DNA of 64,000 bases. Source: Deltaproteobacteria bacterium. Its GTDB lineage: Bacteria; Desulfobacterota; Binatia; Bin18. Location: NCBI GenBank assembly GCA_016874775.1, contig VGTJ01000005.1, positions 5,232-69,231 of the forward strand, given 5' to 3'. Below, piece by piece: positions 1-57,514 of the stretch. Position 1 is the stretch's first letter; each line of letters starts with the position of its first letter. The notes under the pieces are model-generated. The model was not told the origin of the DNA. It worked only from the letters and a program-made list of their open reading frames with translations, and made no database searches. The position numbers and the translations under genes were made by a program.

Positions 1-3000
1 TTCAAGCCCTGCAACGCTTGTGGCAGGGGAAGAGCCAGGCACTTGGTCTGATTCAATTGCCGGAAGGAGTGGTTGAAGAGGCGGCGCACTATCATATTCA
101 CCCGGTGTTACTTGACGCCTGCCTGCAAACCCTGCTGGTCACCTTCCCCGACAGCAGCAAGAACGAGACGTGGCTACCTATCGGATTGGAACGTTTCCAA
201 CTGTATCGCTCGCCCGGTACTCAGCTCTGGTGTCACGCGCGACTGCAGGTGGTCGAAGAAGCTGGTCAACCGCTCTTTCGGGCTGATCTGTGTCTGCTTG
301 ACGCGACTGGGGAGACAATTGCGGTGCTCGAGGGCCTCAGGGCGAAGAAGGCTGATCCAACGCTCCTCCTGGGCGACCAACCGGATCTTGAGAACTGGTT
401 GTACGGCGTTGAGTGGCGTCCGCAAGGACTGTGTCATCCGCGGGAAAACGCGCCCCGGTTGCCTGCTCCCTCTGAGCTGCAAGAGGAACTGCGGCGCGAG
501 ATGGCGGCATTGGCCAACCAATTCCAGCTCGACGACTACGGCAAAGCATTGGCTGAGCTCGACAAACTGTGTGTGCTTTACGTTGTAGCAGCGCTGGGCG
601 ACATGGGCCACGTGTTTCGTCTTCGTGAGCAGTTCTCGACCGCAGAGCTAGCGGCACGCCTTGGGGTCGTACCGACACATCAACAACTTTTTAACCGCCT
701 GTTAGCCATGTTAGTGGAGGAGGGGATCCTCCGTGCACACCAGACTGGTTGGGAAGTCCTTCGCGTGCCCGAAAGGCCTGCGCCGAAGCCCGTGTGGCAA
801 TCGTTACGTTCACGCTATCCACAGGTCGAGATAGAACTTGACCTTGTCCAGCGTTGCGCCGTTGCCCTGGCCGATGTCCTGCAGGGGCGCTGTGATCCGC
901 TGTCGCAATTGTTATTCCCTGGAGGGGACGGGTCGGCAGTGGCTGCATTATATCGGCAGACCCCTGCGGCTGAGGCCGTGCATGCCGTCCTGCGTCAAGG
1001 CCTGTTAACCGCGCTCAACCGGCTGCCTCAGCGAAGCGGTTTGCGGATTGTCGAAATCGGTGCGGGGACTGGGGGGACAACTGCAGCGTTGCTCCCGCAT
1101 CTGCCAGCGGCGCGGACTGAGTACGTCTTCACTGATATTTCCACCGCTTTTGCGACGCAAGCAGAAGCAACATTCGCAGACTATCCCTTCGTGCAGTACG
1201 CGACATTGGATATTGAAAAGGACCCGCACGCTCAAGGGTTTGCTCCCCAGGGTTACGACATCGTGGTCGCCGCCAACGTTCTCCATGCCACCGAGGATGT
1301 CGCGCAGACAGTGCAGCATATCCAGCGCTTACTCGCGCCTGGCGGCATGGTGCTCTTGCTCGAAGGAACAGCACCGCAGCGCTGGATCGACGTGGTGTTC
1401 GGCATGACGAGTGGCTGGTGGCGCTTTCGTGATACAGATCTGCGCCCCGCTCATCCTCTACTATCTGCGCCCCAGTGGTGCGAGGTCTTACGCACTCATG
1501 GTTTTCAACAAACTGTTAGCCTTGACTGTACGCCCATTCACCAGTCTGTGCTTGTGGCTCAGGCAGATAAGATACCCGACGAGCAACAGGAATCTGAGCA
1601 TTGGTTGATTTTCGCTGATGCGGGCGAGATAGGTCACGAACTGAGAGAGCAGGTACGTGCGCGCGGATCGAGGTGTACGCTTGTCCGTCCAGGAAGCCAC
1701 TACGAACCAACCACCGACGACGCCTTCACGATTGACCCCTATGAGCCTGCGCACTATCAGCAATTGTTCGCTGGTCTCGGCACTGCCACCTTACATCACT
1801 GTGTGTATCTCTGGGGTCTTGATACGACGCGGACCAGCGACACCACCGCTTCGCTGGTCGCTGCCGCGCGGATGGGCTGGGAGGGCACGCTACTTGTGGT
1901 GCAAGCCCTGGCGCACGCTCGTCTCGCTCCGCGACTCTCTATCGTTACTCGTGGAGCCATCTCGGTAGCAGGCGAAGCGCTGCCAGGAATAGCCCTGTCA
2001 CCTGTCTGGGGCATGGGCAAAAGTATCGCCTTGGAACACCCGGAGTTACATTGTCTACGCATCGATCTCGCTGCAGAGCCACAAGCGGATGAAGTCTCTG
2101 CACTCATGGCAGAGCTGTCGCAAGGTGTCTCACAACAGACAGAGGACCAAATCGCGTTGCGTGGTGAGTATCGCTATGTGGCTCGCCTCACGCGCTGCGA
2201 TGTTCCTACTGACAGGACCAATGCGGAGCTGCTCAAGCTGCCTCAGACCGAGTCGTATGGGTTAGGAATACCAGAGTGGGGCAAGATAGAAGCGGTTGAG
2301 TGGCGACCGACGCCGCAGCGTGCGCCAAAATCGGGAGAAGTAGAAATTATGGTGCGGGCTGCGGGGTTCAACTTCAAGGATGTGCTGATCGCGCTGGGCA
2401 TGGTGCCAGCATCTGGATCGATCCTGGGCGGCGAATGCGCTGGCGAAGTCATTCGCGTCGGGCCAGGCGTGACCAATGTGAAGGTCGGCGAAGCCGTGAT
2501 GGCGATGGCCCCAGGGAGTTTCGCCCGCTATGTGACAGTCCCGGCCACAGCGGTTGCACGGATCCCGATAGGGCTGAGTTTTGCTGCGGCGGCGACGCTG
2601 CCGATCGCGTTCTTAACCACGCTGTATGCCCTAGAAGAGATCGGACAGGTCCGCGCCGGAGAGCGCGTGTTGATCCATGCCGCATCAGGAGGCGTCGGAC
2701 AGGCAGCGATCCAGGTTGCACAGCGAGCTGGCGCGGAGGTGTGGGCAACCGCGAGTGAGACGAAGTGGGAGGCGCTGCGACGGTTAGGAGTCCGAGAGGT
2801 GCTGAACTCGCGGACGCCAGCCTTTGGCGCGGAGATTAAACGACGAACACACGGAGTGGGTGTCGATATCGTCCTCAACTCGTTACGCGGAGAGTTGACG
2901 ACGGAGAGTTTAAAACTCGTACGGGCAGGAGGGCGGTTTGTTGAGCTGGGGATACGAGATATTCGCTCGGCAGCAGAAGTCACAAGACTGGCACCAGGGG

Positions 3001-4430
3001 CACAATATACGACGCTCGATTTACTAGAGGAGTATACGAAACGCCCGCCGGTGATTGAACGGTTGATGAGCGAGATCGTGAGGCGAGTGGAGGCAGGAGA
3101 GCTTCATCCCTTACCGTACCGCGAGTATGGCGTGGAAGGGGTACGCGAGGCGTTACAGGTGTTGCTGCAAGCGACCCACACTGGCAAGCTCGTCCTCTCT
3201 TTCCCGCCACCCACTCGCCCGCAGTTTCGTAACGACGGGACCTATCTCATCACAGGCGGTTTAGGCGGGCTGGGCTTGTTGACGGCTGGCTGGATGGCCG
3301 AACACGGCGCAGGTCACCTGGTCTTGGCTAGTCGCCGCAGCCTCACGCCTGAAATTGAAGAACAGATTGCGACACTGAAACAGACTGGCACTGAGGTCAC
3401 TGTCTTCCAGACGGATGTGGCGAGTGGTAAGCAGGTTGGCCAACTCTTGACTACTATCGAACATTCACTGCCACCACTACGCGGTATTATTCATGCGGCG
3501 GGGATTCTCGACGACGGTATTCTCCTTGAACAAGATAGAGAACGGTTTAGAAAAGTGCTGGTGCCTAAGGTTGATGGGGCTTGGCATCTGCACCAGCAAA
3601 CGCACACCCTGCCTTTGGACTTCTTCCTGCTGTTCTCGTCAGCCACGTCATTGCTCGGAGCGGTTGGACAGTCGAACCACGTGAGTGCCAATGCGTTTCT
3701 TGACGCGCTCGCGTATCACCGCCGAGCCCAAGGCTTACCGGCTCTCAGCATCAATTGGGGCGCGTGGTCGGAAATTGGTTACGCTGCACAGGTGCAAGCA
3801 GAAGATTTTCTCAAAGCCCAGGGGGTGGGAAGTATCGCACCACGTTGGGGAGTGGCGGCGTTGGAGCGCATCTTCCATGCGAAACAAGCGCAGATCGGCG
3901 TTATTCAGATCGACTGGCCAACCTATCTGCAGCGGACAACGCCATCGTCCTATTTGTCTGATTTCCTGCCAGCGAAGTCCGTCCAACCAGAGCAGCGCGC
4001 GGAGTTCCGTCAGCTTCTTGAGACAACGCCAGCCGCGGAACAACGTGTGCTATTGGCTAACTACGTCACCTCCCAACTTGCAACCGTGTTACGATTCTCC
4101 GCTTCCACGCGTATCGATCCGAAACAGGGCTTTTCCGATATGGGGATGGATTCGCTGACTGCGGTCGAATTGCGCAACAGCCTGCAGACCGATTTAGGTT
4201 GTACGCTGCCATCGACCCTGATCTTCGACTTTCCTAACGTGGCAGCTGTCGTCGACTATGTCGCGACAGAAGTGCTGAAAATACATTCAATTGTCGGGTC
4301 TCCAACAGTGACAGAGAACGTTGGAATAACCGAAGACCTCCAGATACTGGAACGCCTCTCAGAAGCTGAGGCTGAGACCACTCTCCTCAGGGAACTAGAA
4401 GAGCTCGAGGAAAGGGGGTTGTCGTCATGA
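1..4430 (+). CDS. Type I PKS module, 5'-partial (runs off window start): DH(C-terminal half)-cMT-ER-KR-ACP with C-terminal docking tail
   Basis: The reading frame is open from nt 3; the ORF track's start at 18 is a TTG inside an open frame. The DH C-terminal half carries HPVLLDACLQ. The cMT carries the SAM motif VEIGAGTGGTT. The ER carries LIHAASGGVGQAAIQVAQ. The KR carries the Rossmann motif YLITGGLGGLGL and HAAG. The ACP carries GMDSLTAVEL. The tail ends LLRELEELEERGLSS, and the stop overlaps the next start (ATGA at 4427-4430). Confidence 0.93.
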   Translation, partial: QALQRLWQGKSQALGLIQLPEGVVEEAAHYHIHPVLLDACLQTLLVTFPDSSKNETWLPIGLERFQLYRSPGTQLWCHARLQVVEEAGQPLFRADLCLLDATGETIAVLEGLRAKKADPTLLLGDQPDLENWLYGVEWRPQGLCHPRENAPRLPAPSELQEELRREMAALANQFQLDDYGKALAELDKLCVLYVVAALGDMGHVFRLREQFSTAELAARLGVVPTHQQLFNRLLAMLVEEGILRAHQTGWEVLRVPERPAPKPVWQSLRSRYPQVEIELDLVQRCAVALADVLQGRCDPLSQLLFPGGDGSAVAALYRQTPAAEAVHAVLRQGLLTALNRLPQRSGLRIVEIGAGTGGTTAALLPHLPAARTEYVFTDISTAFATQAEATFADYPFVQYATLDIEKDPHAQGFAPQGYDIVVAANVLHATEDVAQTVQHIQRLLAPGGMVLLLEGTAPQRWIDVVFGMTSGWWRFRDTDLRPAHPLLSAPQWCEVLRTHGFQQTVSLDCTPIHQSVLVAQADKIPDEQQESEHWLIFADAGEIGHELREQVRARGSRCTLVRPGSHYEPTTDDAFTIDPYEPAHYQQLFAGLGTATLHHCVYLWGLDTTRTSDTTASLVAAARMGWEGTLLVVQALAHARLAPRLSIVTRGAISVAGEALPGIALSPVWGMGKSIALEHPELHCLRIDLAAEPQADEVSALMAELSQGVSQQTEDQIALRGEYRYVARLTRCDVPTDRTNAELLKLPQTESYGLGIPEWGKIEAVEWRPTPQRAPKSGEVEIMVRAAGFNFKDVLIALGMVPASGSILGGECAGEVIRVGPGVTNVKVGEAVMAMAPGSFARYVTVPATAVARIPIGLSFAAAATLPIAFLTTLYALEEIGQVRAGERVLIHAASGGVGQAAIQVAQRAGAEVWATASETKWEALRRLGVREVLNSRTPAFGAEIKRRTHGVGVDIVLNSLRGELTTESLKLVRAGGRFVELGIRDIRSAAEVTRLAPGAQYTTLDLLEEYTKRPPVIERLMSEIVRRVEAGELHPLPYREYGVEGVREALQVLLQATHTGKLVLSFPPPTRPQFRNDGTYLITGGLGGLGLLTAGWMAEHGAGHLVLASRRSLTPEIEEQIATLKQTGTEVTVFQTDVASGKQVGQLLTTIEHSLPPLRGIIHAAGILDDGILLEQDRERFRKVLVPKVDGAWHLHQQTHTLPLDFFLLFSSATSLLGAVGQSNHVSANAFLDALAYHRRAQGLPALSINWGAWSEIGYAAQVQAEDFLKAQGVGSIAPRWGVAALERIFHAKQAQIGVIQIDWPTYLQRTTPSSYLSDFLPAKSVQPEQRAEFRQLLETTPAAEQRVLLANYVTSQLATVLRFSASTRIDPKQGFSDMGMDSLTAVELRNSLQTDLGCTLPSTLIFDFPNVAAVVDYVATEVLKIHSIVGSPTVTENVGITEDLQILERLSEAEAETTLLRELEELEERGLSS
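405..1520 (+). other. C-methyltransferase (cMT) domain inside the reducing PKS module
   Basis: A domain of roughly 370 aa sits between the DH remnant and the ER. It carries the class I SAM glycine-rich motif IVEIGAGTGGTTAAL and an acidic motif II region (YDIVVAANVLHAT). Its position between DH and ER matches embedded PKS cMT domains. Confidence 0.7.
3240..3760 (+). other. KR domain in which the catalytic Tyr is replaced by His
   Basis: The Rossmann motif TYLITGGLGGLGLLTA, HAAGIL, the catalytic Lys (VPKVDGAWHL) and the Ser (LFSSATSL) are all present. The motif that normally reads N-Y-A-A-A-N-A-F-L-D reads N-H-V-S-A-N-A-F-L-D, with a CAC codon at 3678-3680. The two other intact KRs in the window have Tyr at this position. 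Confidence 0.8.
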
Positions 4431-7400
4431 GTGCTACCCCTTCCCAGCAACCTACACTGTCTCCCACCAAGAGAGCCTTACAGGCCCTACGGGCTGTACG
4501 CTCCAAGCTTGAAGCGCTTGAACAGGCACAAAAGGAGCCGATCGCTATCATTGGTATGGGGTGTCGTTTGCCCGGTGACATCGAGACCCCGGAAGCCTTC
4601 TGGGAACTGTTGCGCGAGGGGAGGGATGCCATTGCGGAGATTCCGGCGTCGCGCTGGGATGTGGGCCACTACTATGATCCCGATGTTGCCGTGCCGGGAA
4701 AGATGATCACACGCCAGGGCGGGTTCCTGCAGCGCATCGACGAATTCGACCCACATTTCTTTGGTATTGCGCCGCGTGAGGCGATGAGCATGGATCCTCA
4801 GCAACATCTGCTCTTGGAGGTGTGTTGGGAAGCGCTGGAAAATGCGGGCGTGGTTCCGGCTGACCTCAAAGGCAGTCGCACCGGTGTGTTTGTCGGAATT
4901 TGCAATCAGGATTATAGCACTCTCCTTATGTCCCGCGACGAAACCGCGATCGACGCCTATATGACCACCGGCCTGGCGCATAGTGTCGCCGCCGGACGGC
5001 TGGCCTACAGCCTGGGTTTGCAGGGGCCTTGTTTAGCAGTTGATACCGCCTGCTCTTCTTCCCTAGTGTCAGTGCACCTTGCCAGCCAAAGCCTGCGTAA
5101 CCGCGAGTGTGATTTTGCCATCGCCGGTGGAGTCAATCTGATTCTCTGTCCGGAGACCAGCATTAACTTCTCCAAGAATCGCATGCTCGCACCCGATGGC
5201 CGCTGTAAGACCTTTGCCGCTACAGCTAATGGCTTCGGCCGCGGTGAAGGGTGTGGTCTTATCGTGCTTAAGCGATTGTCGGACGTTGTGCCAAGTCAGG
5301 ATCAGGTGCTCGCTCTCATCCGTGGCTCAGCCATCAATCAAGATGGCGCGTCCAGCGGCCTGACGGTGCCCAATGGCCCGGCCCAGCAATCAGTCATTCG
5401 TGAGGCGCTGAAAAACGCGGGATTGAGTCCAGACCAGATCAACTACCTCGAAGCGCACGGGACAGGAACCAGTTTGGGCGACCCGATTGAAATGGGTGCG
5501 CTCAGTGCGGTCTTTGGGCCAACTCGTCAACCACAAGAGCCGTTGATTGTGGGGTCAGTGAAAACCAATCTTGGTCACCTGGAAGGAGCGGCGGGCATCA
5601 GTGGACTGATGAAGCTCGTCCTGGCGCTCAGGCATGAGGAGATTCCTGCTCACCTACATTTTACTGCGCCGAGTCCGCATATCCCGTGGGACACGATGCC
5701 GATCGTTGTCCCCAGTCAGGCACGGGCATGGCCCGCAGGCAGCAAGCCTCGCTTAGCCGGAGTGAGTTCGTTTGGCTTCAGTGGTACCAATGCGCATGTC
5801 ATCCTTGAAGAAGCACCGTGGGTGAGCAAGCGGGAGGCAAAGGCTGAACCTGTCGAGATCTACACCGAACCGGTGCTCGAACGCCCACTCCATATCCTCA
5901 CCCTCACTGCCCGTTCTCCTCAAGCGCTGCAAGCCCAGGCTGCGAGTTACGCTGCTCACCTTACCGACGCGACTCACGTGTCCCTCGCCGATGTTTGTTA
6001 TACCGCCAACACCACCCGCTCGGTGTTTGAGCAACGACTGGTTGTTGTTGCTAGTAACACTGAGGAGATGCGGAGCAAGCTCGAGCGCTTCAACGCGGGC
6101 CATCGCGAACAGTTAGTTGCCCAGGGTGATGTCCGTACCACTGAACAGCCGCGTGTGGCGTGGTTATTTAGTGGGCAAGGGTCACAATATCCTGGGATGG
6201 GCTCCAGTCTGTACCAGACACAACCAGTGTTCCGTCGGGCGTTTGATGAATGCGCCCGTATTCTTGACCCCTTGCTTGGCCGCTCTCTCTCCGCGCTGGT
6301 GTTTGACCAAACCTCGCCTGATCTACATCGGACAGCGTTTACCCAGCCGGCACTCTTTGCCCTCGAGTATGCCTTAGCCCAGATGTGGTTGTCATGGGGT
6401 GTTCGACCGGATGCGGTCATTGGCCATAGCGTGGGCGAGTACGTCGCCGCCTGTATCGCTGGGGTTTTCACTCTGGAAGATGCGCTCCGGTTGATTGCGA
6501 CACGTGGCCGTCTTATGCAGGCGCTCCCGCGCAATGGCGCGATGGTTGCCGTTTTTACTGGCCAGGAACAGGTCATTCGGGCCATCGTTACTCTCGGTAG
6601 TAATGTGTCGATCGCCGCTGTCAACAGCAGTACGGAAACGGTCGTTTCGGGCGAACGCACGGCTGTGCAAAGGCTGGTGGAGCACATAACAGCCATGGGG
6701 ATCCGCACGCAAGAACTGAGCGTGTCACATGCGTTCCACTCGGACCTAATGGAGCCGATGCTGGCTGAGTACGAACAGGTTGTTCGTGGCGTTTCGCTGT
6801 CTTTACCGCGCATCCGTCTGGTGTCTAATCTGACCGGAGAAGTTGTCTCGCAGCAGGTGACTGAGCCCACCTACTGGTGTCGTCATCTACGCAAGCCGGT
6901 GCTTTTCGCAGCAGGGCTCGCCACGCTCCGTCAACACGGCCTACAAGCGTTGGTGGAAATGGGGCCGCATCCCGTCCTGGTTGGCATGGCGCGATCACAG
7001 GTTCTCAACCAAGCATCTTCTCCAGCGTTGTATCTGCCGAGCCTGCGCAAGGGGCAGCAGGATTGGATGGTACTGGCACACAGCCTGACTGATCTCTATC
7101 TCGCTGGTGTACCAATTGACTGGACAGGTTTCGACGCGCCCTACCAACGACATCGCACAGCCCTGCCAACCTATCCTTTTCAGCGCAAACGCTATTGGTT
7201 TACTGAGAACGCAACCTCTCGACGGCAATCCTCTGTACCGACCTCTCCGCTGGTTTCTCTCCTGCAAGAAGGCGACGCCGAAGCTTTAGCCGGGCACCTG
7301 CAAGCTAGCGGAGAGCTAACGGCGGAAGAGGTGAAGTGTCTGCCAAAGCTGACCGAGCTGTTGATCCGCCAGCATCACCAGCAACCGCAGGAAGAACAGA

Positions 7401-9472
7401 ACGGCTTGTGCTACCGACTGACGTGGCAGAAAAAGGCGCGTAGCACCGAGCGGCGTGAGGACAAACGGTCTGCCGACCGTCGCACTGGTACTTGGTTGAT
7501 TGTAGCGCATCCTGACGCACTCGAACTCGCCGAGCCCCTGCGCGACGTCGGACGGTGTTCTTTCCGCGTTGTGCTGGGTAGTGCGGATCAACATGTGACT
7601 GCTAAGAAGCGGTTGATAAATTCCCTTGAGGCTGTTCCAACAGGCGAAACCGTGCTTCGACAAGCTCAGTACGAACGGGAAAAGCACAGCGACGGTGTAT
7701 CTTCTTCCGTTCACCCTGAGCTTGTCGAAGGGTGGATGGCGAATTTGTCAACAGCTTCTAACACCTGGATCATCGATGCGACCAACGAGGACGAGTATCA
7801 CCATGTGCTGGAAGAAGTCATGGCTAAGACCACGATTGAAGGCGTCGCTTACCTCTGGCCTGCAGAGGTCAGACCCGAGCAGCAATTGCACGGACTGGGG
7901 GAAGAGGGTCTCATGCCAGTGGTGCGACTCGCGCGCGCGCTTGCTCGGTTCACGTCTCCACCCCGCCTGTGGCTGATCACGCAAGCGGCCACCACGGCTG
8001 GGGATGCGGCGCCACTATCTCCCTTCCCGTCACTTCTGTGGGGCATGGGCCGGTCGCTCTTCCTGGAGCACCCCGCACTGAAGGGTGGGATCGTGGATGT
8101 GAGTTCACAGCCGAGTACAAGCGAAATTCAGGCGCTGTGCCAGGAGCTACTAGATTCACAAGGAGAGGACAACATTACGCTGCGCGCGGGCAAGCGCTAT
8201 GTCGCGCGTCTGCAAACATCACTTGATGTGACAACGACGATGCCCCGACTCAAGTCCGATGGTGCTTACCTTGTCACTGGTGGTTTGGGAGCACTAGGAC
8301 TACAGGTCGCCCGTTTCCTCGCGCAACACGGAGCTGGTCAGGTGGTGCTCATGGGTCGTCGCGAGGCAACCGCGCAGGCCAAAGAGCTCGTGGACTCCCT
8401 GCAAGACCTGAACACGCACGTGGTAGTGGCGCAAGCTGATTGTACCGCTGAAGCAGAGGTACATAGGGTTCTCGACGAGATCGCGGCCAGCGGGTTCACG
8501 CTCAAAGGGGTGATCCATGCCGCTGGGGTCCTAATCCCGCGATCCGTCAGTGAACTCGACCACGAGTGTTTGCGTACTGTGGTCGCTCCCAAAGTACAGG
8601 GAGCCTGGACGTTGCACCGCGTAACCCAACAACTCACGCTCGACTTTTTTGTCTGTTTCTCGTCGGTCTCCGCTGTTTTGGGTACGGCCTTTCAAGCGCA
8701 CTATACGGCAGCGAACGCCTTTTTAGACGGCTTGGCTGAGTACCGTCGCGGCCTTGGCTTGCCCGCCCTCAGTATCAACTGGGGGCTCTGGGAAGGACGG
8801 GGAATGGTAGATGACGAGTCGGCGCGACGTGTTACGGACACTGGTATTAAAGCACTGTCGTCGCATACGGCACTCGCTCTGTTTGGTCGCCTCCTCAGAA
8901 CAGATCAGTCTCGAGCCGTCGTGTTGAATGCAGATTGGCAGCGCCTCAAGAGCTTGTATGAAGTTCGCGGCAAGCAGCCTGTGCTCGAGTTTATGGGCAG
9001 CACGATGCAGGAGGAAACGACCGCAAAGGCCTCGGCTATCCTCGACCAATTACAAGCGATGACGGTCCGCGACCGGTTCGATTTCTTGGTTTCCTATCTG
9101 CAAGAGCAAGTCAGCGCGGTGCTGTATTTTGACGCGAATACTACGCCAGATTCTAAACACGGCTTCATTGATATCGGTCTCGATTCACTGACCGCCGTAG
9201 AACTGAAGGGTCGGGTTGAGACCGAATTAGGTTGTCCTCTGTCTCCGTCAGTGATGTTCGATTATCCCAATATCGAGGCGCTCACCAGCCATTTATTGGA
9301 GCAGCTTTCAGCGATGACGCCAGAGCGCGAGAGAAAAGCCCAGAACGATAAGGGAGCGGCGGTTGTTGTGGTAGAGGAAGCCGCCGTCCAGGCTGATGTC
9401 CGGCAACTTTCTGATACCGAAATCGCGGCGTTCATCGACAACGAGCTCGCGACGCTGACCGACGAAGGATAG
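4427..9472 (+). CDS. Type I PKS module: KS-AT-KR-ACP (malonyl-type AT, no DH, giving a beta-hydroxy unit)
   Basis: N-terminal docking coil, then EPIAIIGMGCRLPG. The KS carries DTACSSSLV and HGTGTSLGD. The AT carries GHSVGEY and VSHAFHSDLM (malonyl). The KR carries AYLVTGGLGALGL, HAAGVL and QAHYTAANAFLD with the catalytic Tyr intact. The ACP carries GLDSLTAVELK. The protein ends with a docking tail. Confidence 0.95.
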   Translation: MSATPSQQPTLSPTKRALQALRAVRSKLEALEQAQKEPIAIIGMGCRLPGDIETPEAFWELLREGRDAIAEIPASRWDVGHYYDPDVAVPGKMITRQGGFLQRIDEFDPHFFGIAPREAMSMDPQQHLLLEVCWEALENAGVVPADLKGSRTGVFVGICNQDYSTLLMSRDETAIDAYMTTGLAHSVAAGRLAYSLGLQGPCLAVDTACSSSLVSVHLASQSLRNRECDFAIAGGVNLILCPETSINFSKNRMLAPDGRCKTFAATANGFGRGEGCGLIVLKRLSDVVPSQDQVLALIRGSAINQDGASSGLTVPNGPAQQSVIREALKNAGLSPDQINYLEAHGTGTSLGDPIEMGALSAVFGPTRQPQEPLIVGSVKTNLGHLEGAAGISGLMKLVLALRHEEIPAHLHFTAPSPHIPWDTMPIVVPSQARAWPAGSKPRLAGVSSFGFSGTNAHVILEEAPWVSKREAKAEPVEIYTEPVLERPLHILTLTARSPQALQAQAASYAAHLTDATHVSLADVCYTANTTRSVFEQRLVVVASNTEEMRSKLERFNAGHREQLVAQGDVRTTEQPRVAWLFSGQGSQYPGMGSSLYQTQPVFRRAFDECARILDPLLGRSLSALVFDQTSPDLHRTAFTQPALFALEYALAQMWLSWGVRPDAVIGHSVGEYVAACIAGVFTLEDALRLIATRGRLMQALPRNGAMVAVFTGQEQVIRAIVTLGSNVSIAAVNSSTETVVSGERTAVQRLVEHITAMGIRTQELSVSHAFHSDLMEPMLAEYEQVVRGVSLSLPRIRLVSNLTGEVVSQQVTEPTYWCRHLRKPVLFAAGLATLRQHGLQALVEMGPHPVLVGMARSQVLNQASSPALYLPSLRKGQQDWMVLAHSLTDLYLAGVPIDWTGFDAPYQRHRTALPTYPFQRKRYWFTENATSRRQSSVPTSPLVSLLQEGDAEALAGHLQASGELTAEEVKCLPKLTELLIRQHHQQPQEEQNGLCYRLTWQKKARSTERREDKRSADRRTGTWLIVAHPDALELAEPLRDVGRCSFRVVLGSADQHVTAKKRLINSLEAVPTGETVLRQAQYEREKHSDGVSSSVHPELVEGWMANLSTASNTWIIDATNEDEYHHVLEEVMAKTTIEGVAYLWPAEVRPEQQLHGLGEEGLMPVVRLARALARFTSPPRLWLITQAATTAGDAAPLSPFPSLLWGMGRSLFLEHPALKGGIVDVSSQPSTSEIQALCQELLDSQGEDNITLRAGKRYVARLQTSLDVTTTMPRLKSDGAYLVTGGLGALGLQVARFLAQHGAGQVVLMGRREATAQAKELVDSLQDLNTHVVVAQADCTAEAEVHRVLDEIAASGFTLKGVIHAAGVLIPRSVSELDHECLRTVVAPKVQGAWTLHRVTQQLTLDFFVCFSSVSAVLGTAFQAHYTAANAFLDGLAEYRRGLGLPALSINWGLWEGRGMVDDESARRVTDTGIKALSSHTALALFGRLLRTDQSRAVVLNADWQRLKSLYEVRGKQPVLEFMGSTMQEETTAKASAILDQLQAMTVRDRFDFLVSYLQEQVSAVLYFDANTTPDSKHGFIDIGLDSLTAVELKGRVETELGCPLSPSVMFDYPNIEALTSHLLEQLSAMTPERERKAQNDKGAAVVVVEEAAVQADVRQLSDTEIAAFIDNELATLTDEG

Positions 9473-9476
9473 CAGC

Positions 9477-44930: not shown

Positions 44931-45542
44931 TTACTGCAATGGTAATCGCTCTTCCTCAACTACCTCAAGGTGCCCCTGTCCAGTCAGCGTGGTCAGATCG
45001 ATGTCGGCGATGCAGCGCACTTTCACGAAATTGAGGGTGACCCCGCCGACGAGGCGAGCTATGCCAGTTTGCTTGTCAAAGTCAGCGCGACTCAGATCAC
45101 TCGCCTGGGGATCAAGTCTCACTCCGAACTCTGTTCCCCCTTTGGTTGCGGGAAACTTTATTTGTACATATCCTCTGTCGATACATTGTTGCAGGATCTT
45201 GGCTGTTTTCTGCGGACGAAGACTCACTTCGACTGGGTGGCTTCCTGCAGCTAAGCGTTGCACCAGGTCATCCTTGGTACTTTCTTCGGTCGCCTTCCCA
45301 CCAGCATGGGGCTCGGGGCGGGGGGCGCGCGCGGCCTCTGCCATTTGTTTGCGCAGACTCAGTGGTCGCATGTCGGTCCATACAGTTTCGATGTGAGCCA
45401 AACATTCGGCTTTAAGCCCGCTTTTCCCGGCGTCTTTCCAACCTAGCGGGTTCTCACGATCGGCGGGAAGGATGGAGTATTGCTCTTCGTGATTCACTAC
45501 GACCTTGTAGATGGTGGTATCTTCTTGTTCTTCTCTTGGCAT
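44931..45542 (-). CDS. MbtH-like protein fused to a roughly 130-aa C-terminal domain of unknown function
   Basis: The N-terminal 70 aa read [58 protein letters not shown], matching the MbtH signature (N-x-E-x-Q-x-S-x-W-P ... P-x-G-W ... W-T-D-x-R-P). The remainder (GGKATEEST...[26 protein letters not shown]) has no motif I recognise. Confidence 0.85.
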
Positions 45543-46485: not shown

Positions 46486-46489
46486 CGGT

Positions 46490-49400: not shown

Positions 49401-52400
49401 TGGCTCTGGGAAGAGATATGTACTTCACGGTCTGCGCTGGCCGGTCGATCAAGCCAGTAGCGCTGGCGCTCGAATGGATAGGTCGGTAGTGGGACCCGAC
49501 GGCGCTGATAATCACTGTCGAAACCTGTCCAGTCTACCGGGGCGCACACGGCCAAGCGGCCCAAGCTAAACAAAAGTTGCTGCCAATCCGACTGTCCCTG
49601 ACGCAGACTCGGAAGCCAGACAGCCGTATCCGACTCTACACAGCGCGCCCCCATGCCGAGTAACGTGGGCTTTGGTCCAATCTCGATAAACGTTTGGTAT
49701 CCCCGTTGAGCAAGAGTCTCCATACCAGACCGGAATTGGACAGGCTGCCGGATATGGCGACACCAGTACTCAGGGGAGGCAATCTCGTCGGCTATGACCT
49801 CACCAGTGAGGTTGGACACGATCTCGATCTGTGGCGCCGCATATGCGATCTGTGCAGCAACGCGAGCGAAGTCATTGAGCATGGGCGCCATTAGCGGCGA
49901 GTGGAAGGCATGCGAAGTATTCACTTTCTGTGTTGTAACCCCGGCCTCATGCAATCGACTGCGAATGCTTGCCACTGCCTCGGTGCGACCGGAAATCACA
50001 GTATGGTCAGGACCGTTCTCGGCGGCAATGGCAACCTGACTGCTAAAAGGAGCGAGACATGGCTGAACCTGGGCTTTACTTGCAAACACAACGAGCATCT
50101 CGCCGTCGTGCGGCAATGCCTGCATCAGGCGAGCTCGGTGCGTCACCAACGTGAGTCCGTTCTCCAGGCTGAATACTCCAGCAATACAGGCGGCAACATA
50201 TTCACCGAGACTGTGTCCCATAACGATGGAGGGGGTAATGCCCCACGACTTCCATAGTTGGGCCAGCGCATATTCCAGCGCGAAGAGTGCGGGTTGGGTG
50301 TAGGCAGTTTCGTTGAGGGGTGAGGTACTGGGGTCCGCCGGATACAAGACGTCGAGTAACTGCACGTCGAGCATGGGCCGCAAGATTTCCGCACAGTGGT
50401 CGAGGTGTTGGCGAAAGATGGGCTGGGTCTCATAGAGTTGGCGTCCCATTCCCACACACTGTGATCCCTGGCCGGTAAAGAGAAACGCGATCCGATCGTG
50501 CGCTTGGGTGGTTGCCTGGCCTCGTATCGCGCGGCTCTCGCCGCTGGCTAGTCGGCTGAGGTCGTCGCGCAGTTGTGCAACGGACTCGGCAACCACTGCC
50601 AAACGGTGCTCAAAGAGCTTGCGACCGGTATTGGCGGTGAAACAGATATCCGCCAGTGAGGTTTCGGGGTGATCCGTGAGAAACCGAACGTAGCGGCTGG
50701 CCAACTCCGACAAGGCCGTCTCCGTACGTGCGGACAGCACCAGGATGTGCTGCGGACGTTCTACCGTATTTTCCACCGCCGCCATGGGTGGCGCTTCCTC
50801 AAGAATGACGTGGCTGTTGGTGCCACCAATACCCAACGAGTTCACCCCAGCACGCCGCGGGGAACTTGTCGCTTTCCATGGCGTGGGCGTCGTGGCAACG
50901 TAAAATGGACTGTTCTCGAAGTCGATGCCAGGATTGGGTTTTTGAAAGTGGAGGGTTGGCGGGATCATCTGGTGTTGGAGCGCAAGGACAGTCTTAATGA
51001 AACCGACCATTCCTGACGCGATCTGCAGATGGCCGACATTGGTTTTGACTGAGCCAAGGGCGCAAAATCCGCTTTCCGTGGTGTGCGCGCGAAACGCCTG
51101 GGCCAGAGCATTCACTTCGATCGGGTCGCCCATCTCAGTGCCAGTACCGTGAGCCTCAACAAAGCCTATGGTATCGGGGGCGACATCAGCGATTGCCATC
51201 GCCTCGGCGACAACAGTCGCCTGCCCCTCGGCGCTGGGCGCCATATACCCGACCTTCATCCCACCATCATTGTTGACGGCAGAACCTTTGATGACCGCAA
51301 AGATGTGGTCGCGGTCGCGCACCGCATCTTCTAATCTTTTGAGTAACACCACGCCAACACCACTGCCGAAGATCGTTCCTTTGGCCTGTGCGTCAAAGGC
51401 GCGACAGTGGCCGTCGGGAGAAACAATCATGCCGTCCTGAAACAGATGGCCTGCGCGATGCGGCACTTGCACAGACGATCCAGCCGCGAGGAACATATCG
51501 CCTTCGCCACTGAGGAGCGACTGGCAGGCAAGGTGGATCGCGACCAAGCCGGTGGAACAAGCAGTTTGCACATTGATGCTCGGACCGCGCAGATTGAGTT
51601 TGTAGGAGAGTCGCGTTGTCAGGTAGTCCTTGTCATTGGCGACCATGAGTTGGAAGCCGCCCATCGAGTCCAGGGTCGTTACCCGCAGGCTATCGTGTGT
51701 ATCCAGGGTGTCGCGGTTGGGGTAGACATTGTTGAGTAGGTAGGTGTTCATGCTCGCCCCGGCGTACACACCAATTGCTCCTGGATAGGTAAGCGGGTTG
51801 TAGCCTGCAGTTTCGAGCGTTTCCCAGGCGCACTCAAGTAACAGTCGGTGCTGTGGGTCCATCAATGTGGCTTCGCGGGCGGTATAGCCAAAAAAACCAG
51901 CGTCAAAGCTTTCGACATCCGACAAGAGGGGACTCGCCGGCACATAGTTCGGATGGCGGGCGACGGCCGGATCAATTCCTGAGCCGAGGAGTTCATCCTC
52001 GCTAAAGAACGTAATCGACTCGACTCCTGTAGCGAGATTACGCCAGAAGTCATCCAGGGTGTCGGCTCCGGGAAAGCGACAAGCCATGCCAACCACCGCG
52101 ATCATGCCTTTGTCCTCGGAGACGCGGAAGCGGTTGCGCGCTTGCGCGCGTTCCATCCCGCGTTGTGGTGCTGTGTCTTGAGAGCCGCCATTGCTCAGCA
52201 GTTGGACGAGTGAGTGGATGGTCGGACATTTGAAGAGATCGACCAACGTGAGTTGCGAGCCAAACATCTGCGTGAGCCGAGTGTGGGCCTGGACCAGAAG
52301 CAGCGAATGGCCGCCGAGTTCAAAAAAGTTGTCATGGACCCCAACCTCGGGCACCTCCAGAATGTCCTGCCATACCTTAGCGATCTGCAGCTCCATCTCA

Positions 52401-55400
52401 GACACCGGCACCTGGCGCGCTGCCGCTTCCGGCTCCTGCCCCTGTGCAAGTCTCTGCAACCGATGCACATCGATCTGGCCGGCTGCGGTGAGCGGCATCT
52501 CAGGCAGATGCTGTAGCGCACTATCAGGACGACAGCCGGGATGACGTCCGAACTCGTCCTCGCTAAACAGGCGCTCGTAAAAGGGGTGCTGTTTGTAACG
52601 CTGCTGATGGTGGTACGAACCATGAGTAAAGTCGCGGCGCTCACCGTTGGTGCGGACGAGGGTGCCGTTGATGACAAAGTCGGGATTGAGCCCATTGTCG
52701 CACACCGTCCGCGTAATCTTCGCCGTGATGCGGTCACCCGGAGTGACGTCGATGCCAGGACAGAACACGGGCATATACACTGGCAGCCAACTGTACTCAT
52801 GTTCAATGATGTCGATGACTTCGCAGTCGATGGTCTGCAGGTTCAACCACACGAGGAACCCGTCAAATCGCGACGCCTGATCAATGACCAACTCAATCTC
52901 GTGCTGTTGCGCAAGCGGAATCGTCTGACTGAAGTCCAAATCCTCGAAGACTGCCGAGTTAGAGAGCAGATGGGTGTGCGGGAACTTCTTGATACAGACC
53001 CTGAGATCGAAGGGATAGCCGATCTGGGCAAAGATCTTTTCGGTGTACGTTCCCGGCACCCGATAGAAGCCCGGGTGGGACAACAAAGCATCGGGCAAAC
53101 TGACCGCGGCGATGCGTGTGACACTGCGACTCGGAATCATAACTCCGCCGGGGCGCAGGAAGCGCTGGGCGTCGTTAATCACCACAGCGGCACCTTCGCA
53201 ACCGCCAATCGGTCCGACGATTTCTGAGACACACACATCAACCAACTCGGGCAGTTCGACTGCAGCCGAGTTGCCGTGGAGCATGGTTATGCGATCATCA
53301 AGACCCAATTGTTGAATATAGCTTGAGGCTTGGGCGAACGCCTCGTCGCCCATTTCTATGGCGTAGACCTTGCGCGCTCCGGTCTCAACAGCGAGCCTGG
53401 CTAAAATCGCCTCCTTGCCAGTGCCGATGTCGAGCACGACTTTATCCCGCACGGTTTTTTCCAGCGCGACGCGATATTTACGATTGCGGCGTTCGTCATT
53501 GGCCAAGGCATAGTAGATAAGATCGTCGTAGACATAGTACTCCGCTACTGATGGCCACAGCTCGATCTGCTCACTGCCCGCGCTCTCAGGTTCGCGCATC
53601 TGCACGTACTCATAGTGAGCAACTGCACCGTAGCGATCGACCAGCGGGAGTGCACCCAACTGCTCGCGGGAGACTGATCGATGAGCGGTAAAGAAGAGCG
53701 AGGTCTTCCGTAGCTCCAGCGGACCAGCGAACATCCGAGCCCGGAGGAGTGGGCTGTCGCCATCGAGACCAACCACCAACCGCGCTTCACCGAGTTGCAG
53801 GCCAACGATAATGGAATTGACAATGCGACGTACTGCAACAGGAAGCTGCGCATGGGCAGAGTCGTGCGTATGTGCGGGAGCATTAACGAGGTCGTCCAAC
53901 GCGGCCACGCTCAACCCGTAGACGTGTAGATTACCGCGTTTCTCAAGATGTGAGATGAGTCGATCTTGGAACGCAGAGCTAGCCGCCACCGCGCACCGTC
54001 CACCGGCGTCGAGTACGTGGGCGGCTGAGGACACGGTAATGAATACGCTGCCCCGCTGCTTCCGCAGAAGCTCGACAAGCGACCACACACCTGCCACTTC
54101 TGGAACGAACGTGGTGGCGAGAGTGTCCTTACTCTCCTCGAGCAGCGACCGTTGGGATGGACTTGCCGCGAGGTGAATGGCCCCGTCCAGCGTGGCTCCC
54201 CACTGAGCCAGAGGGCCGTCAAGCGCGCGCTGTAGCGCCTCTGCATCTTGGATGTCGACCGCAGCATAGACACAGTTGCCCGACAGTTGTCGCAGGCGGT
54301 GATATATCGCCTGCCGCTCGTCGGTTGTGCCCTGGTCAGCATGCTCGTCCGTCGGCAACGGCTCTTTTCCTAAGAGGACGAGGCGAGCCTTGAACCGTGT
54401 GAGTAGAAACTCTGCGACATGCGGTCCGATTCCTTCTAGGCCATTGTTCACGAGATAAACACCATGCCGTTGGAAGGGGAGATCGCGGCTCTGTTGGTTT
54501 GTTGACGTAGCGACGGGGACTTGTTGCAGACCCGACACCCAACGTTGGTTTCCTCGATAGGCAACTTCGCGATCGGCTAGCGCTCCCAGGACCTCCCGGG
54601 TAATGGCCGGCGCGTAGGTGTCATACGCTTCTGCAGGACAGTCAATGTGCAGGCAACGTAACCATGAGAGTTCCTCACTCACGGTGTGAAGGAGGCCCGG
54701 AAGTGTCGCCTTGGCGTAGGCGCTCGCCTCGTGAGCCAGGATGGCTTGAGCATTACTGGAAACCGCTAGCAATCGCACGGGCGTATGGGACGCGAGGGCG
54801 GCGAGAGCCTGCACCAAGAAGAGCATGCTGTAGAAGCCCTGCTGCTGTGTGCGCTCAATTCCCTCCCGACTTTCGCTCATTTGCAGATCGGCGTCATAGC
54901 TGAAGAGGTGGACAACGGAGCCTATCTGGACCCCTGAGTCTCTCAGTGTCTCTAACACGATGTGATAGTGCCGTGGGTCCTCGGGTCGGATGGAAAAGTG
55001 AGTTGCGCCGCGCTGGGCAAAGGTCTCGCTAGCCTCAACGACCACGCACGTAACGCCGCGGGCGGTGAGTTCCGCAACCATCTGCTGTCCAAGGCCAAGA
55101 CGATCAAGCAAGACTAGACAGGCTCCTTGCTGCTTCTGCGGTGCTCCCACCAGGTCCTTGCGGTGCCATACCTGCTTGTAGAACCACTCAGGAAGAGTGT
55201 GCTCATTCGCCGCGAACAGATCGAGGCGCTCAAGAATGTCCTGAAACACACCCTGATAGAACTGCTCGACGAGTTTTTTGCGCTGGAGTTTGCCGATCGC
55301 CGTCTTGGGGATGGCATCGCGGTCAAGCGGGATCAAGAAATCCGCTTTGATGCCAAGCTGCTTTGTCAATCGCAACTGAATGGCGCGTAGAAGCTTGCGC

Positions 55401-57514
55401 AGGAACCCGTCGTCCCCATACGGCGTATGGAAGAACACGGCCAACTTCTGCGCGTCACTGTCTGGCGGCCGTACTGCGCAGGCCACGGTAAACGATGCAG
55501 CGACACCGTCGACTTGCTCAACCACCGCTTCAATCTCGTTATTGTAGAAGTTCGCGCCGTTGATAATGATGCCAGCATCCGCTCGTCCGGTGAGCATCAA
55601 CTCGCCACCGGAAATAAAGCCCACGTCCCCTGTGTCGAACCATCCGTTAGCCAGGAACACTTTGTTCGCCTCGGGGTTGTTGTAGTAGCCGGACGATAGG
55701 GCGTCGCCTTTGAGCTGCAGGCGTCCAGTCGTCCCCTCGGGAACGACGCGTTGCTCCTCGTCAACAATGCGCATGGAGACCCCTGGGATGACCGGCCCCA
55801 AGCTGGCAAAGGCGACGCACGTGCTTGCCTCGGGATCGGCGGGTTGGAGCGCGCCACCGAGGGTGTTGCGGTCAATATAATGAAAGGTCAAAGACTTCCC
55901 AGCAGCCGGTTGATGATACGTCACCCCAGAGCCAACCTCGGCCATGCCAAAAGCGGTCTGCAGCACCGAGAGTTGCAGGCCATACGGCGCGAGACTGTCG
56001 AGAAATTCGCTGGTCGTGGTCCGCGTGATTGATTCACCAGCAGTGAGGAGCATTTTGACGCAGGACAGATCCCACTCGCGTTGCCGCTCACCCTTGAGGG
56101 CAGCGCTGACCAGCGAATAGGCAAAATTCGGCGCCCAACTATGCGTGATGCGGTGACGATGGATGAGATCCAGCCAGCGCAGCGGGCTCCCCAACACATA
56201 TTCTTTTGGCGCATAGATCAGCGTGCAACCGAGTACGATACAGCGCAGATGCCAGTCGGAGATGCTGCCAATGTGGTCGAACGGCAGCCAATTGAAGATC
56301 ACCGCTTCGGCAGACTGCTGACACAACAGATTGGTCCCACGCGCGCGCGCCAGGATGCTGCGGTGCGTGAGCATGACTGCCTTTGGTAGCCCGGTGCTGC
56401 CCGAAGACAGGGTGTAAAAAGCAATATCATCGGGCACGGCGCTGTGGATGTTCATATCCGGCGGGTTGTCGCGCAGTTCCTCAAGTGCAGCGAGGCGGGC
56501 GTGAGCCCGTAGGGGAGGTGGCAGCGCCTTGCGGATATCTTCGACTCGGTCCCGAACGGTAAGGAGTAGGGGGCGGTCGAACAGGGTCCAAATGTGATTG
56601 AGATGGTCAAGTGCTCGGCTCTCGCCGTCGTAGGTGAGTGGCATTGGGACAATGACGGGCTCGAATCCCCCAAGCAAACAGCCCCAGAACGCAGGCAGGA
56701 TGTCGTCGTTGCAGTCGAGCTGAAAGATAACTTTGTCGCCAGGCTTGAGGCCATGCTGGCGCAGCCCGCCAAGAACGCGCCGCGCTTCCTGGAGCAACGC
56801 GCCGTAGCTCGTGACCCGCTCGGAACCCTCGCGGTCAATGTAAATGATACAGGCGCTTTCCGGCGCTGCGCACAGCACGGCAGGAAGGACCTGGGGCGCA
56901 TCCGCATGTTGCGGTATGGATTGCCCGTGGCAGAGGGCGGCAGGAACATCGCCTGCACTCTGTGTTATCACAGGAGTCACCGCGAACGCTGCTTCTGCGC
57001 GCTGCGGGACTGGTGCAGGAGGGGACGACTCACGCAACAGCTTGGCAATGTGAACATGTCGCGGCGTATCCGCCCAGTAGCCTGAGACACTAACTACTCG
57101 GTCGATCTCTGGGAGAGCAGCAACCTGTGCTTCCCATGCCGATGCCAGGTCCGCTGACCAAACGGGAACGCGCGCTAGCGCCGCTGCATCGATCGCTCCG
57201 TCCTCAGTCACCGGCAGGTACGCAACTGGCACAACCGCCGAGATGAGTTCTCCAGCGCGCTCGCGAAGCCGAGGCTCAATCTGGTCGAAGTTCTGCTCAG
57301 TCACGATAACGTAGGCCACCAGGTCCCACGTGCCTGGTTGTACCTCTCGCTTGACGACTACGCATTCCTTGACTGATGAGTCACTGAGCAGCGCGGTGGT
57401 AATGGCCTCCAGGTCAACACCGTCACCGGTGACTGGCAGGGCCTCTACTGTTGTCGTTCTCTCCATCTGTACTTGGACGGGCTTGTTGGTATTGACCGAC
57501 TCACGCATCTTCAT
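46490..57514 (-). CDS. Initiation megasynthase: [A-subdomain-like remnant]-FAAL-like acyl-activating domain-KR0-like-PRMT-fold MT-A10-like+carrier protein-KS-AT-DH-KR-ACP
   Basis: ATG at 57514 with GAAGGA just upstream. The acyl-activating domain carries [24 protein letters not shown] and [20 protein letters not shown] (FAAL/FACL type). The carrier protein carries [10 protein letters not shown]. The KS carries [26 protein letters not shown] and HGTGTEMGD. The AT carries GHSLGEY and HAFHSPLM. The DH carries [14 protein letters not shown]. The KR is intact ([29 protein letters not shown]). The ACP carries [10 protein letters not shown]. The protein ends with a docking tail. Confidence 0.93.
   Translation of the reverse strand: [3674 protein letters not shown]
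46610..52108 (-). other. First extension module KS-AT-DH-KR-ACP (KS about 50780-52108; AT about 49535-50497; DH about 48515-49417; KR about 47255-48427; ACP about 46610-46822)
   Basis: The motifs are listed under the CDS. The AT carries the malonyl-type HAFHS. The DH carries HxxxGxxxxS. The KR is fully intact. There is no ER, so the predicted output is an alpha,beta-unsaturated acyl intermediate. Confidence 0.85.
46820..47023 (-). repeat. In-frame tandem duplication (2 x 102 nt, 2 x 34 aa) in the linker just upstream of the module-1 ACP
   Basis: The protein copies are [34 protein letters not shown] and [34 protein letters not shown]. The DNA reads gcgattttctggcag at 46964-46978 and gcggttttctggcag at 46862-46876, 102 nt apart. 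The second copy runs into the ACP helix-I region. Confidence 0.8.
52190..52417 (-). other. A10-like motif plus carrier protein (PCP/ACP) of the loading region
   Basis: [20 protein letters not shown] resembles A10 [14 protein letters not shown]. It is followed by [35 protein letters not shown], a PCP of the kind that follows an A domain. Confidence 0.8.
52535..53617 (-). other. Protein-arginine-methyltransferase (PRMT)-fold SAM methyltransferase domain embedded in the loading region
   Basis: [30 protein letters not shown]...[84 protein letters not shown]. Class I PRMTs read H..ML.D..R...Y ... VLDVGCGTGILS.FAA.AGA.KVYAVE ... V.LP.KVDIIISEWMGY. The layout of the post-I motif, the D/E-rich second motif and the SE..G double-E-like loop matches. 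About 200 aa follow with the size of a beta-barrel subdomain. Confidence 0.65.
53885..55192 (-). other. KR-like (psi-KR plus Rossmann) domain lacking catalytic Lys/Tyr, inserted after the FAAL core
   Basis: It begins [14 protein letters not shown], homologous to WFYLPSWK / WFYLPGWK at the start of the KR regions in the 18883 and 36029 proteins. The Rossmann motif reads [21 protein letters not shown]. At the positions of the catalytic K and Y of the intact paralogue it reads VAGVWSL and [12 protein letters not shown], so neither K nor Y is present. Confidence 0.6.
55280..56917 (-). other. Fatty-acyl-AMP/CoA-ligase-like (FAAL-type) starter-activating domain
   Basis: [40 protein letters not shown] (FAAL LPxxHDMGL-like) and [20 protein letters not shown] (FAAL GRxKDxIIxxGxNxYPxDIE-like) are present. 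NRPS-type A8 would be GRxDxQVKIRGxRIE. The domain lacks the aa-activating A4/A5 patterns. Confidence 0.8.
57155..57397 (-). other. N-terminal extension resembling an adenylation-domain C-terminal subdomain (A8-A10 region) with no preceding A core
   Basis: [26 protein letters not shown] resembles the post-A8 pattern [30 protein letters not shown] resembles A9/A10 (MVPxxFVxLxxLPLTxNGKxDRxAL). It lies upstream of the FAAL-like core. Its translation is supported by the RBS at the ATG at 57514. Confidence 0.45.

Follow-up and report, generated by a model that had tools for sequence, protein, structure and literature searches.

Microsclerodermins and the related pedeins, cyclic peptides with potent antifungal and cytotoxic activity, are known from sponges and a small number of myxobacteria; gene clusters have been described for the myxobacterial producers only. 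The 23-membered microsclerodermin ring contains a polyhydroxylated beta-amino acid, a pyrrolidinone, sarcosine, a tryptophan derivative, glycine, and gamma-amino-beta-hydroxybutyrate (GABOB) (PMC5132153). The msc clusters of Jahnella and Sorangium encode polyketide synthases (PKSs), a nonribosomal peptide synthetase (NRPS) with an aminotransferase (AMT) and a monooxygenase (MOX) that adds Asn, and a further PKS, followed by a trimodular NRPS, a terminal NRPS/PKS hybrid, the 'amidohydrolase' MscE, and a type II thioesterase (TEII) (PMC6163206). Here, we analyzed a 64,000-nt stretch of contig VGTJ01000005.1 (positions 5,232 to 69,231; GenBank assembly GCA_016874775.1), referred to below as the window, from a metagenome-assembled genome (MAG) named 'Deltaproteobacteria bacterium'. 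Seven very long megasynthase open reading frames (ORFs) occupied positions 1-57514, with genes A-F on the plus strand and gene G on the minus strand. The window very probably holds one self-contained microsclerodermin-type assembly line, lacking only the 5' 3.3 kb of gene A. The original prediction, which was made from the sequence alone, had matched the domain string to no named cluster; the string, the codes of the adenylation (A) domains (Asn, Gly, ?, Gly, Gly), and an MscE homologue of 70% identity fit microsclerodermin. The exact proteins of the window are deposited at NCBI under generic names as MBM4254542-MBM4254550, on a contig of 69,483 nt, and the closest match among species-representative genomes showed 68% identity.

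Domains were assigned by Pfam scans, and each domain copy was also mapped by phmmer using window-derived seeds. The seven megasynthases contained six ketosynthase (KS)-containing PKS modules, five NRPS modules, one loading region, and one terminal thioesterase (TE), in agreement with the predicted inventory. The catalytic Cys-His-His of the KS was present in 6/6 domains, both dehydratase (DH) domains kept the catalytic His and Asp, and all six acyltransferases (ATs) read GHSxGE ... HAFHS and were thus malonyl-type, again as predicted. The plus-strand genes overlapped or were 4-38 nt apart. The minus strand formed one apparent operon of a PF04909 protein (the MscE homologue), gene G, a TEII gene, and an MbtH-like gene. 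The two blocks converged across a gap of 88 nt (44843-44930), in which a terminator scan gave no convincing site.

The peptide half of the assembly line resembled that of the msc clusters, with which the locus also shares a size of approximately 62 kb. The A-domain codes were extracted by alignment to the GrsA-PheA fragment, which returned its own canonical DAWTIAAICK. The codes of four of the five A domains could be assigned: Asn for aa1 (gene C), Gly for aa2 (DILQFGLVWK), and Gly for both aa4 (DILQLGMVWK) and aa5 (DILQLGLIWK). An N-methyltransferase was inserted in the aa2 A domain at 26649-27026, which would convert this residue to sarcosine. The epimerization (E) domain after the aa3 module was canonical in its motifs HHLVVDG, AYHTQIND, EGHGR, and FNYLG. 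Gene F began with a TubC-type docking domain, and its ketoreductase (KR) had intact active-site motifs and the LDD motif. The N-methyl residue, the D-residue, and the terminal order of hydroxy-ketide and TE that had been read from the sequence were borne out by the N-methyltransferase, the E domain, and the KR-ACP-TE end of gene F. Gene E would add sarcosine, a D-amino acid (Trp by analogy), and Gly, and gene F would add Gly and a reduced malonate (GABOB), after which the TE would close the ring onto the beta-amino group by macrolactamisation. The predicted peptide half is thus beta-amino acid, Asn plus keto-ketide, Sar, D-Xaa, Gly, Gly plus hydroxy-ketide, TE, with ring atoms of 4+5+3+3+3+5=23. 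The msc clusters share with the window the PKS-made beta-amino acid formed with an AMT and a MOX, the Asn and subsequent malonate unit leading to the pyrrolidinone, the N-Me-Gly, the D-residue, the Gly, the terminal Gly+malonate(KR)-TE hybrid, MscE (70% identity), and the type II TE.

The PKS genes A-D would make the remainder of the chain. Gene A would add a C-methylated and nominally fully reduced unit, with its C-methyltransferase (cMT) at the position where C6 of the beta-amino acid is made, and gene B would add a beta-hydroxy unit corresponding to the C5 hydroxyl. No Pfam match to a hidden DH, which could have allowed a 4,5-diol route, was found in the 394-aa AT-KR linker of gene B. The PKS module of gene C was without a KR, leaving the beta-keto group directly open to the AMT, and the flavin MOX is therefore more simply explained as an alpha-hydroxylase; in the published msc proposal, the monooxygenase oxidises a beta-hydroxyl. 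To judge from these domains, gene C would add the last ketide, transaminate its beta-keto group, probably hydroxylate the alpha-carbon, and condense Asn, which is consistent with the beta-amino (alpha-hydroxy) unit proposed earlier. Although Pfam detected a KR fold in gene D, this KR was inactive by its motifs (Table 1), in accordance with the retained beta-keto ketide of the original prediction. The equivalent module in related loci had either a dead KR with His/Asp at the Tyr position (L001, L002, and L039) or no KR at all (L003, L004, L005, and L014), and keto retention after Asn is therefore a conserved design. The malonate added by gene D would remain unreduced, and the Asn side-chain amide would close onto the ketone to form the pyrrolidinone. 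By collinear counting, four extensions of an aryl-C2 starter lead to C10 and not to C12.

Gene G was the sole protein with loading logic, and its loading region had been called a fatty-acyl-AMP ligase (FAAL)-type region starting a fatty tail. This assignment was not sustained. The best structural homologue of the G A domain was StsA (6ULX, E=9e-121), and McyG (4R0M) gave E=9e-109, whereas FAAL structures gave 6e-46 or weaker. StsA is an alpha-ketoisocaproate-selecting A-KR-T initiation module, and a hydrophobic residue at the Asp235 position together with Gly-Met in A5 are hallmarks of keto-acid-selecting A domains (PMC11253843, also the source of the PDB entry identities) and mark domains whose acid substrates have no alpha-amino group. 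McyG is the loader of microcystin synthetase and binds phenylpropanoids/Phe. In G, the Ile of 'PFDHIGS' aligned with StsA I306 and McyG V227, which is the Asp235 position, and 'AFGMAE' aligned with the Gly414-Met415 motif of StsA. G shared with StsA/CesA-type A-KR-T modules (6ULW/6ULX) this Ile, the Gly-Met, a KR before the carrier, and an N-terminal pseudo-Asub-like region. In contrast to these modules, the loading KR of G, which reads NNGLEGIG, PEVAG, and CAVAASS, had lost the Tyr, Lys, Asn, and glycine-rich motif, a PRMT-like methyltransferase (MT) was inserted, and the downstream partner was a KS and not a condensation (C) domain. The functional KR with which StsA-type modules make an alpha-hydroxy acid was absent from G and likewise from its ortholog on contig L085. 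The McyG loading didomain had the hydrophobic residue for Asp235 and the same pocket Trp, AFGM, and Ser as G, and McyG likewise initiates a polyketide with an aryl terminus and, at its other end, a beta-amino acid formed by an AMT; unlike G, McyG has neither a KR remnant nor an MT between the A domain and the carrier.

The MT of G comprised approximately 340 residues between the KR and the acyl carrier protein (ACP) domain; its top structural relatives were PRMTs (PRMT6, E~1e-15), and it aligned closely with the other two A-KR-MT proteins that were recovered, P0013 and P0015. Among assembly-line enzymes, a PRMT-like MT was otherwise found only in LynB3, where it is presumed to be a tyrosine phenol O-methyltransferase (PMC10127204). 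The A-domain pocket of G was read by alignment as I, G, S, W, L, A, A, S, G, K, which is McyG-like and contains no acidic residue, and we therefore infer an aryl-bearing keto acid or phenylpropanoid acid as the starter. On this evidence, the starter is most likely a non-amino carboxylic acid of the aryl-substituted alpha-keto or phenylpropanoid type, possibly O-methylated. G would load it and then add one malonate to give an enoyl unit. A guanidino starter, which was suggested by the PRMT-like double-E loop of the MT (SEIVGPIGGCEG), was rejected because of the lack of an acidic pocket residue and because the sole MT precedent is a presumed phenol O-methyltransferase. A protein search with the G loading region returned cyanobacterial A-KR-ACP proteins of approximately 40% identity; this search was not exhaustive, as it overlooked a 63%-identical ortholog attributed to Methylobacter that was later reached through the MscE homologue.

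These properties of G bear on the possibility that the locus encodes a FAAL-primed beta-amino fatty-acid lipopeptide synthetase of the puwainaphycin/iturin/microginin kind, with its early modules upstream of the window. The string KS-AT-ACP-AMT-MOX-C-A-PCP of gene C, with its 3-amino-2-hydroxy acyl unit, is common to the puwainaphycin/minutissamide-type and other AMT-MOX synthetases of the cyanobacterial loci L006-L013, PuwG was among the matches to a 1550-aa piece of gene E, and the G loading A domain does fall in the broad FAAL-like ANL branch, with a GxNxYxxEIE motif and an insertion after A5. However, the scores against FAAL structures were far behind those against StsA and McyG, and the Ile/Gly-Met hallmarks, the KR remnant, and the MT are not features of a FAAL-ACP. 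Neither did the 2.2 kb that could be read 5' of gene A contain a synthase gene. The A-domain specificities are those of microsclerodermin, and the motif of Asn, keto-ketide, and N-Me-Gly was absent from the cyanobacterial loci L006-L013, in which the puwainaphycin/minutissamide-type synthetases take fatty acids as FAAL-activated primers and differ in their peptide parts, which are longer. A FAAL-primed lipopeptide synthetase is accordingly very unlikely, and we retain the microsclerodermin-type assembly line as the explanation of the locus.

The completeness of this assembly line was examined from the sequence upstream of the window. The exact protein of gene B was present on two public assemblies, L081 and L082. 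L082 had 0 mismatches with the window across the whole 19,472-nt overlap, and L081 differed at 13 positions over 19.5 kb, of which 6 were synonymous and 7 non-synonymous, numbers too small for any inference of selection. In both assemblies, gene A encoded 2585 aa and started 3,327 nt upstream of window position 1; only its first 1110 codons (KS-AT-half DH) are missing from the window. Its N-terminus was a short docking helix followed by the KS. Further 5', the 2.2 kb readable contained only a 90-aa DUF6072 ORF and an rve/DDE transposase gene, with no loading module or further synthase. These two elements mark the left cluster border, outside the window and some 1-3 kb 5' of gene A, where the IS240/IS66-like transposase and the DUF6072 ORF lie at 520-1722 in L081 and 80-1283 in L082; the Logan contig L082 terminates at this insertion sequence (IS) element.

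Within the window, G was the only ACP-terminated protein without a downstream partner, with a docking tail that ends in ...LATAQALLAELNELLSDEA, and A was the only KS-first protein without a donor. The line therefore runs in the order G→A→B→C→D→E→F and is essentially complete in the window except for the 5' part of gene A. The original prediction had rightly placed chain initiation only on the minus strand, which held for the window and the 2.2 kb upstream of gene A, and the start of the hand-off partner of G upstream of position 1; its order of units was likewise supported. This partner is gene A itself and not a separate gene encoded upstream, and the claim that several pathway genes lie outside the window fell away, because only the 3.3 kb of gene A is missing and is preceded by the DUF6072 ORF and the transposase gene.

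Further evidence on the relation of the two strands came from an orthologous cluster of 63-73% identity on contigs L085/L086. These contigs are attributed to Methylobacter tundripaludum, an attribution based on the NCBI name of a near-identical form of the 73%-identical MscE homologue that they carry. On them, E-like, F-like, MscE-like, and G-like genes were adjacent and co-directional, unlike in the window, where the block of the amidohydrolase (AH) gene and G converges on E-F. The F-like protein showed 66% identity over 2939 aa, with an identical Gly code and matching E-tail/F-dock sequences, and the G-like protein showed 63% identity over 3356 aa, with a dead loading KR and a PRMT-like MT as in G. 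The AH-G block therefore belongs with E-F, and the convergent layout of the window is an inversion of the arrangement in L085/L086. No paper in the literature library that was searched linked Methylobacter with microsclerodermin, and no product is reported for L085/L086.

If the locus were instead two unrelated clusters lying tail to tail, the block of G, TEII, MbtH-like, and AH genes would serve another pathway than the plus-strand genes, an arrangement to which the convergent orientation and the IS element at the left border could be fitted. It would leave the only loader without an acceptor and the only donorless KS-first protein without a donor, and the minus strand holds the MscE homologue, the TEII gene, and an MbtH-like gene that the plus-strand NRPS would use. 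In view also of the adjacent and co-directional E, F, AH, and G genes in L085/L086, we regard two separate clusters as scarcely credible. The one convergently arranged assembly line of the original prediction thus stands, on the complementarity of G and A and on these homologues.

A wider family of loci was defined by an AMT-MOX-C-A(Asn) gene and a KR-less or KR-dead module, followed by a Gly/N-methyltransferase module, and was found in genomes of Rhodospirillum sp., Niveispirillum, Pyrinomonadaceae, Acidimicrobiia, and Vicinamibacterales. The locus and its relatives in Alpha- and Gammaproteobacteria, Acidobacteriota, and Actinomycetota indicate that the scaffold is encoded far beyond the known producers, and the presence of the cluster type on contigs attributed to a named species, Methylobacter tundripaludum, offers a direct route to a product.

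The MscE homologue of the window showed 70% identity over 99% of its length with V5UVQ4 of Jahnella sp. MSr9139 and 69-70% identity with Sorangium copies. In the locus of Sorangium So ce1128 (L016), the MscE gene, whose product is 69% identical to that of the window, lies directly upstream of the AMT-MOX-C-A(Asn) gene, in which the Asn code is DATKIGEVCK. Amidohydrolase-related dinuclear oxygenases (AROs) are defined by the PF04909 fold, an N-terminal D-x-H, and a C-terminal D-x-P-H-x-[D/E] more than 200 residues further in, and MscE itself is listed as an ARO in a 2026 survey (PMC13154177). The fold and both motifs were present in the MscE homologue of the window, which is therefore a candidate C4 hydroxylase and not, or not only, a pyrrolidinone cyclase. 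This dinuclear oxygenase would plausibly add a further hydroxyl at C4, and its motifs provide a testable answer to the question of the source of the extra hydroxyls of the beta-amino acid. MscE-like proteins of 55-73% identity were common in metagenomes among the matches listed, and also occurred in genomes labelled Methylobacter, Endothiovibrio, Orrella, Alcaligenaceae, Cyanobium, and Congregibacter; the msc-like context of the proteins in this match list was checked for the Methylobacter-attributed contigs only. An ENA contig (L083) with an MscE homologue of 80% identity had synthase genes that were split differently: the MscE gene was followed by one for an 818-aa stand-alone AMP-binding protein, and a 374-aa ER-ACP protein was encoded on the opposite strand between PKS genes.

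Several observations weigh against a microsclerodermin-type product or an intact line. The aa3 code DVGVVGEIWK could not be assigned to a residue, Trp included. In the KR of gene A, His replaced the catalytic Tyr (GQSNHVSAN, codon CAC, 3678-3680), and this codon was identical in all three assemblies. If this KR is inactive, C7 would remain a ketone, with the DH and ER idle. The second C domain of gene E (28215-29531) read HHIISDE and not HHxxxDG. In view of these two changes, some steps of the line may be altered or may fail. The putative orthology to MscA-D/MscF-I rests on the architecture, the codes, and the partial Sorangium locus L016, which showed only 53% identity with gene C in the AMT-MOX region. 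When Msc megasynthases were sought with the 1550-aa piece of gene E, only generic two-module NRPSs were matched. According to the figure legend of a review, msc loading comprises ACL and ACP only, without KR or MT (PMC6163206), and the PKS half differs from msc as listed there, given the KR and MT in the G loader. No product is known for the cluster. The NADPH motif, Lys, Ser, and Asn of the gene A KR were intact; the KRs of the orthologous modules in L003, L004, L005, and L014 have the Tyr, and a Nodularia module (L013) also has His. An msc-type cluster would be expected to load a phenylacetate-type starter through an acyl-CoA ligase (ACL); the McyG/StsA-like A domain of G is compatible with an aryl acid, whereas the architecture with KR0 and a PRMT-like MT differs from ACL-ACP.

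Some of these observations would also be expected from an msc-type cluster that is decaying or silent and gives no product or a shunt product. The Tyr→His change in gene A, the HHxxxDE of the C2 domain in gene E, the IS transposase 1 kb upstream of gene A, and the GC content of 57-61% in the cluster compared with 50-52% in the adjacent flank all point in this direction. Nevertheless, the reading frames were intact over all 57 kb, the KS, AT, carrier Ser, C, E, and TE motifs were canonical except for the two named, and the two independent assemblies had 0 and 13 nt differences from the window across 19.5 kb. Relatives share the dead KRs of G and D, which are consistent with the chemistry. Decay or silence is accordingly improbable.

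The peptide half of the window is known microsclerodermin logic, whereas the gene layout, the fused module in C, the cMT/ER module, and the loading module differ. Unlike in the msc clusters, a DH-cMT-ER-KR module was present; the last PKS module and AMT-MOX-C-A-PCP were fused in gene C (corresponding to MscD plus MscF), with the MscE gene elsewhere; the loader was of the form A(StsA/McyG-type)-KR0-PRMT-like MT-ACP instead of ACL-ACP (PMC6163206); and the loader operon was convergent to the remaining genes. The window contained no gene for a halogenase, an Fe/2OG oxygenase, a separate methyltransferase, or an MFS protein, and its host is not among the cultured myxobacteria. The unusual starter module and the cMT module point to a new chemistry of the side chain. 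The sponge microsclerodermins A/B carry a C6-methyl and a p-methoxyphenyl terminus, and the cMT of gene A acts at the C6 position. We tentatively raise the possibility, doubtful as a whole, that this MAG and the Methylobacter-attributed clade represent a microsclerodermin subfamily with a C6-methyl, O-methyl-aryl side chain (AMMTD-like, so far from lithistid sponges only). Its starter would be supplied by an undescribed loading logic, in which a keto-acid/McyG-type A domain and a vestigial KR are combined with a PRMT-like MT that O-methylates the aryl group of the starter on its carrier, and the MscE-type protein would be the C-H hydroxylase still missing for the trihydroxy beta-amino acid, instead of a cyclase for the pyrrolidinone.

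Table 1. Genes and domains of the assembly line and its accessory genes in the window
Feature	Position	Strand	Details
Gene A, 3' part	1..4430	+	open at window start; full length KS-AT-DH-cMT-psiKR-ER-KR-ACP
Gene A DH remainder	3-353	+	
Gene A cMT	1002-1508	+	
Gene A ER	2331-3197	+	
Gene A KR	3237-3773	+	
Gene A ACP	4062-4262	+	
Gene B	4427..9472	+	KS-AT-KR-ACP
Gene B KS	4535-5662	+	
Gene B AT	6161-7081	+	
Gene B KR	8261-8794	+	
Gene B ACP	9095-9295	+	
Gene C	9477..18878	+	KS-AT-ACP-AMT-MOX-C-A-PCP
Gene C ACP	12321-12515	+	
Gene C aminotransferase	13116-14249	+	
Gene C luciferase-like monooxygenase	14583-15482	+	TIGR04020, 508 bits
Gene C A domain (aa1)	17004-18476	+	code DATKVGEVGK, Asn
Gene D	18883..23568	+	KS-AT-psiKR-KR-ACP
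Gene D KR0	22342-22920	+	no Lys/Tyr/Asn, altered NADPH motif
Gene E	23607..36032	+	C-A(nMT)-PCP-C-A-PCP-E-C-A-PCP
Gene E epimerization domain, after aa3 module	31374-32756	+	TIGR01720
Gene F	36029..44842	+	TubC-type dock-C-A-PCP-KS-AT-psiKR-KR-ACP-TE
Gene F TE	44045-44821	+	GHSFG
MbtH-like protein	44931..45542	-	MbtH residues 2-52
Type II thioesterase	45664..46485	-	likely ATG 4 nt after G stop
Gene G	46490..57514	-	[N-terminal pseudo-Asub-like]-A-psiKR-KR-MT-ACP-KS-AT-DH-psiKR-KR-ACP
G C-terminal docking tail	46493-46630	-	
G second ACP	46631-46852	-	
G KR	47258-47788	-	
G DH	48539-49384	-	
G AT	49562-50485	-	
G KS	50945-52102	-	
G loading ACP	52196-52384	-	
G PRMT-like methyltransferase	52556-53566	-	
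G psiKR+KR0	53870-55117	-	
G StsA/McyG-type A domain	55295-56863	-	
G pseudo-Asub-like N-terminus	57110-57514	-	
MscE homologue (PF04909)	57625..58785	-	DSH at 15-17, DFPHPE at 344-349
Cyclic-peptide export ABC transporter	59895..61523	-	TIGR01194, 373 bits (cut-off 286)

The TEII, the MbtH-like protein, and the ABC exporter would serve the assembly line. The listed TEII ORF (45664-46662) was over-extended, with a 173-nt overlap with the 3' end of G and a thioesterase domain that starts from residue 106. The ABC transporter is the probable exporter of the product, as judged from its family match. The G+C content was about 58% up to approximately 58 kb and about 50% beyond, and this drop together with the content of the flank suggests that the cluster was horizontally acquired. 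In addition to the ABC exporter, the flank at 58000-64000 contained a prohibitin/Band 7 gene, a DUF697 gene, and a 469-aa ORF without a family match. The MbtH-like protein carried a C-terminal extension of approximately 150 aa, for which a weak CBF_beta-like match was the only Pfam match, and a stretch in the Nostoc locus L006 was 60% identical to this protein over 121 aa.

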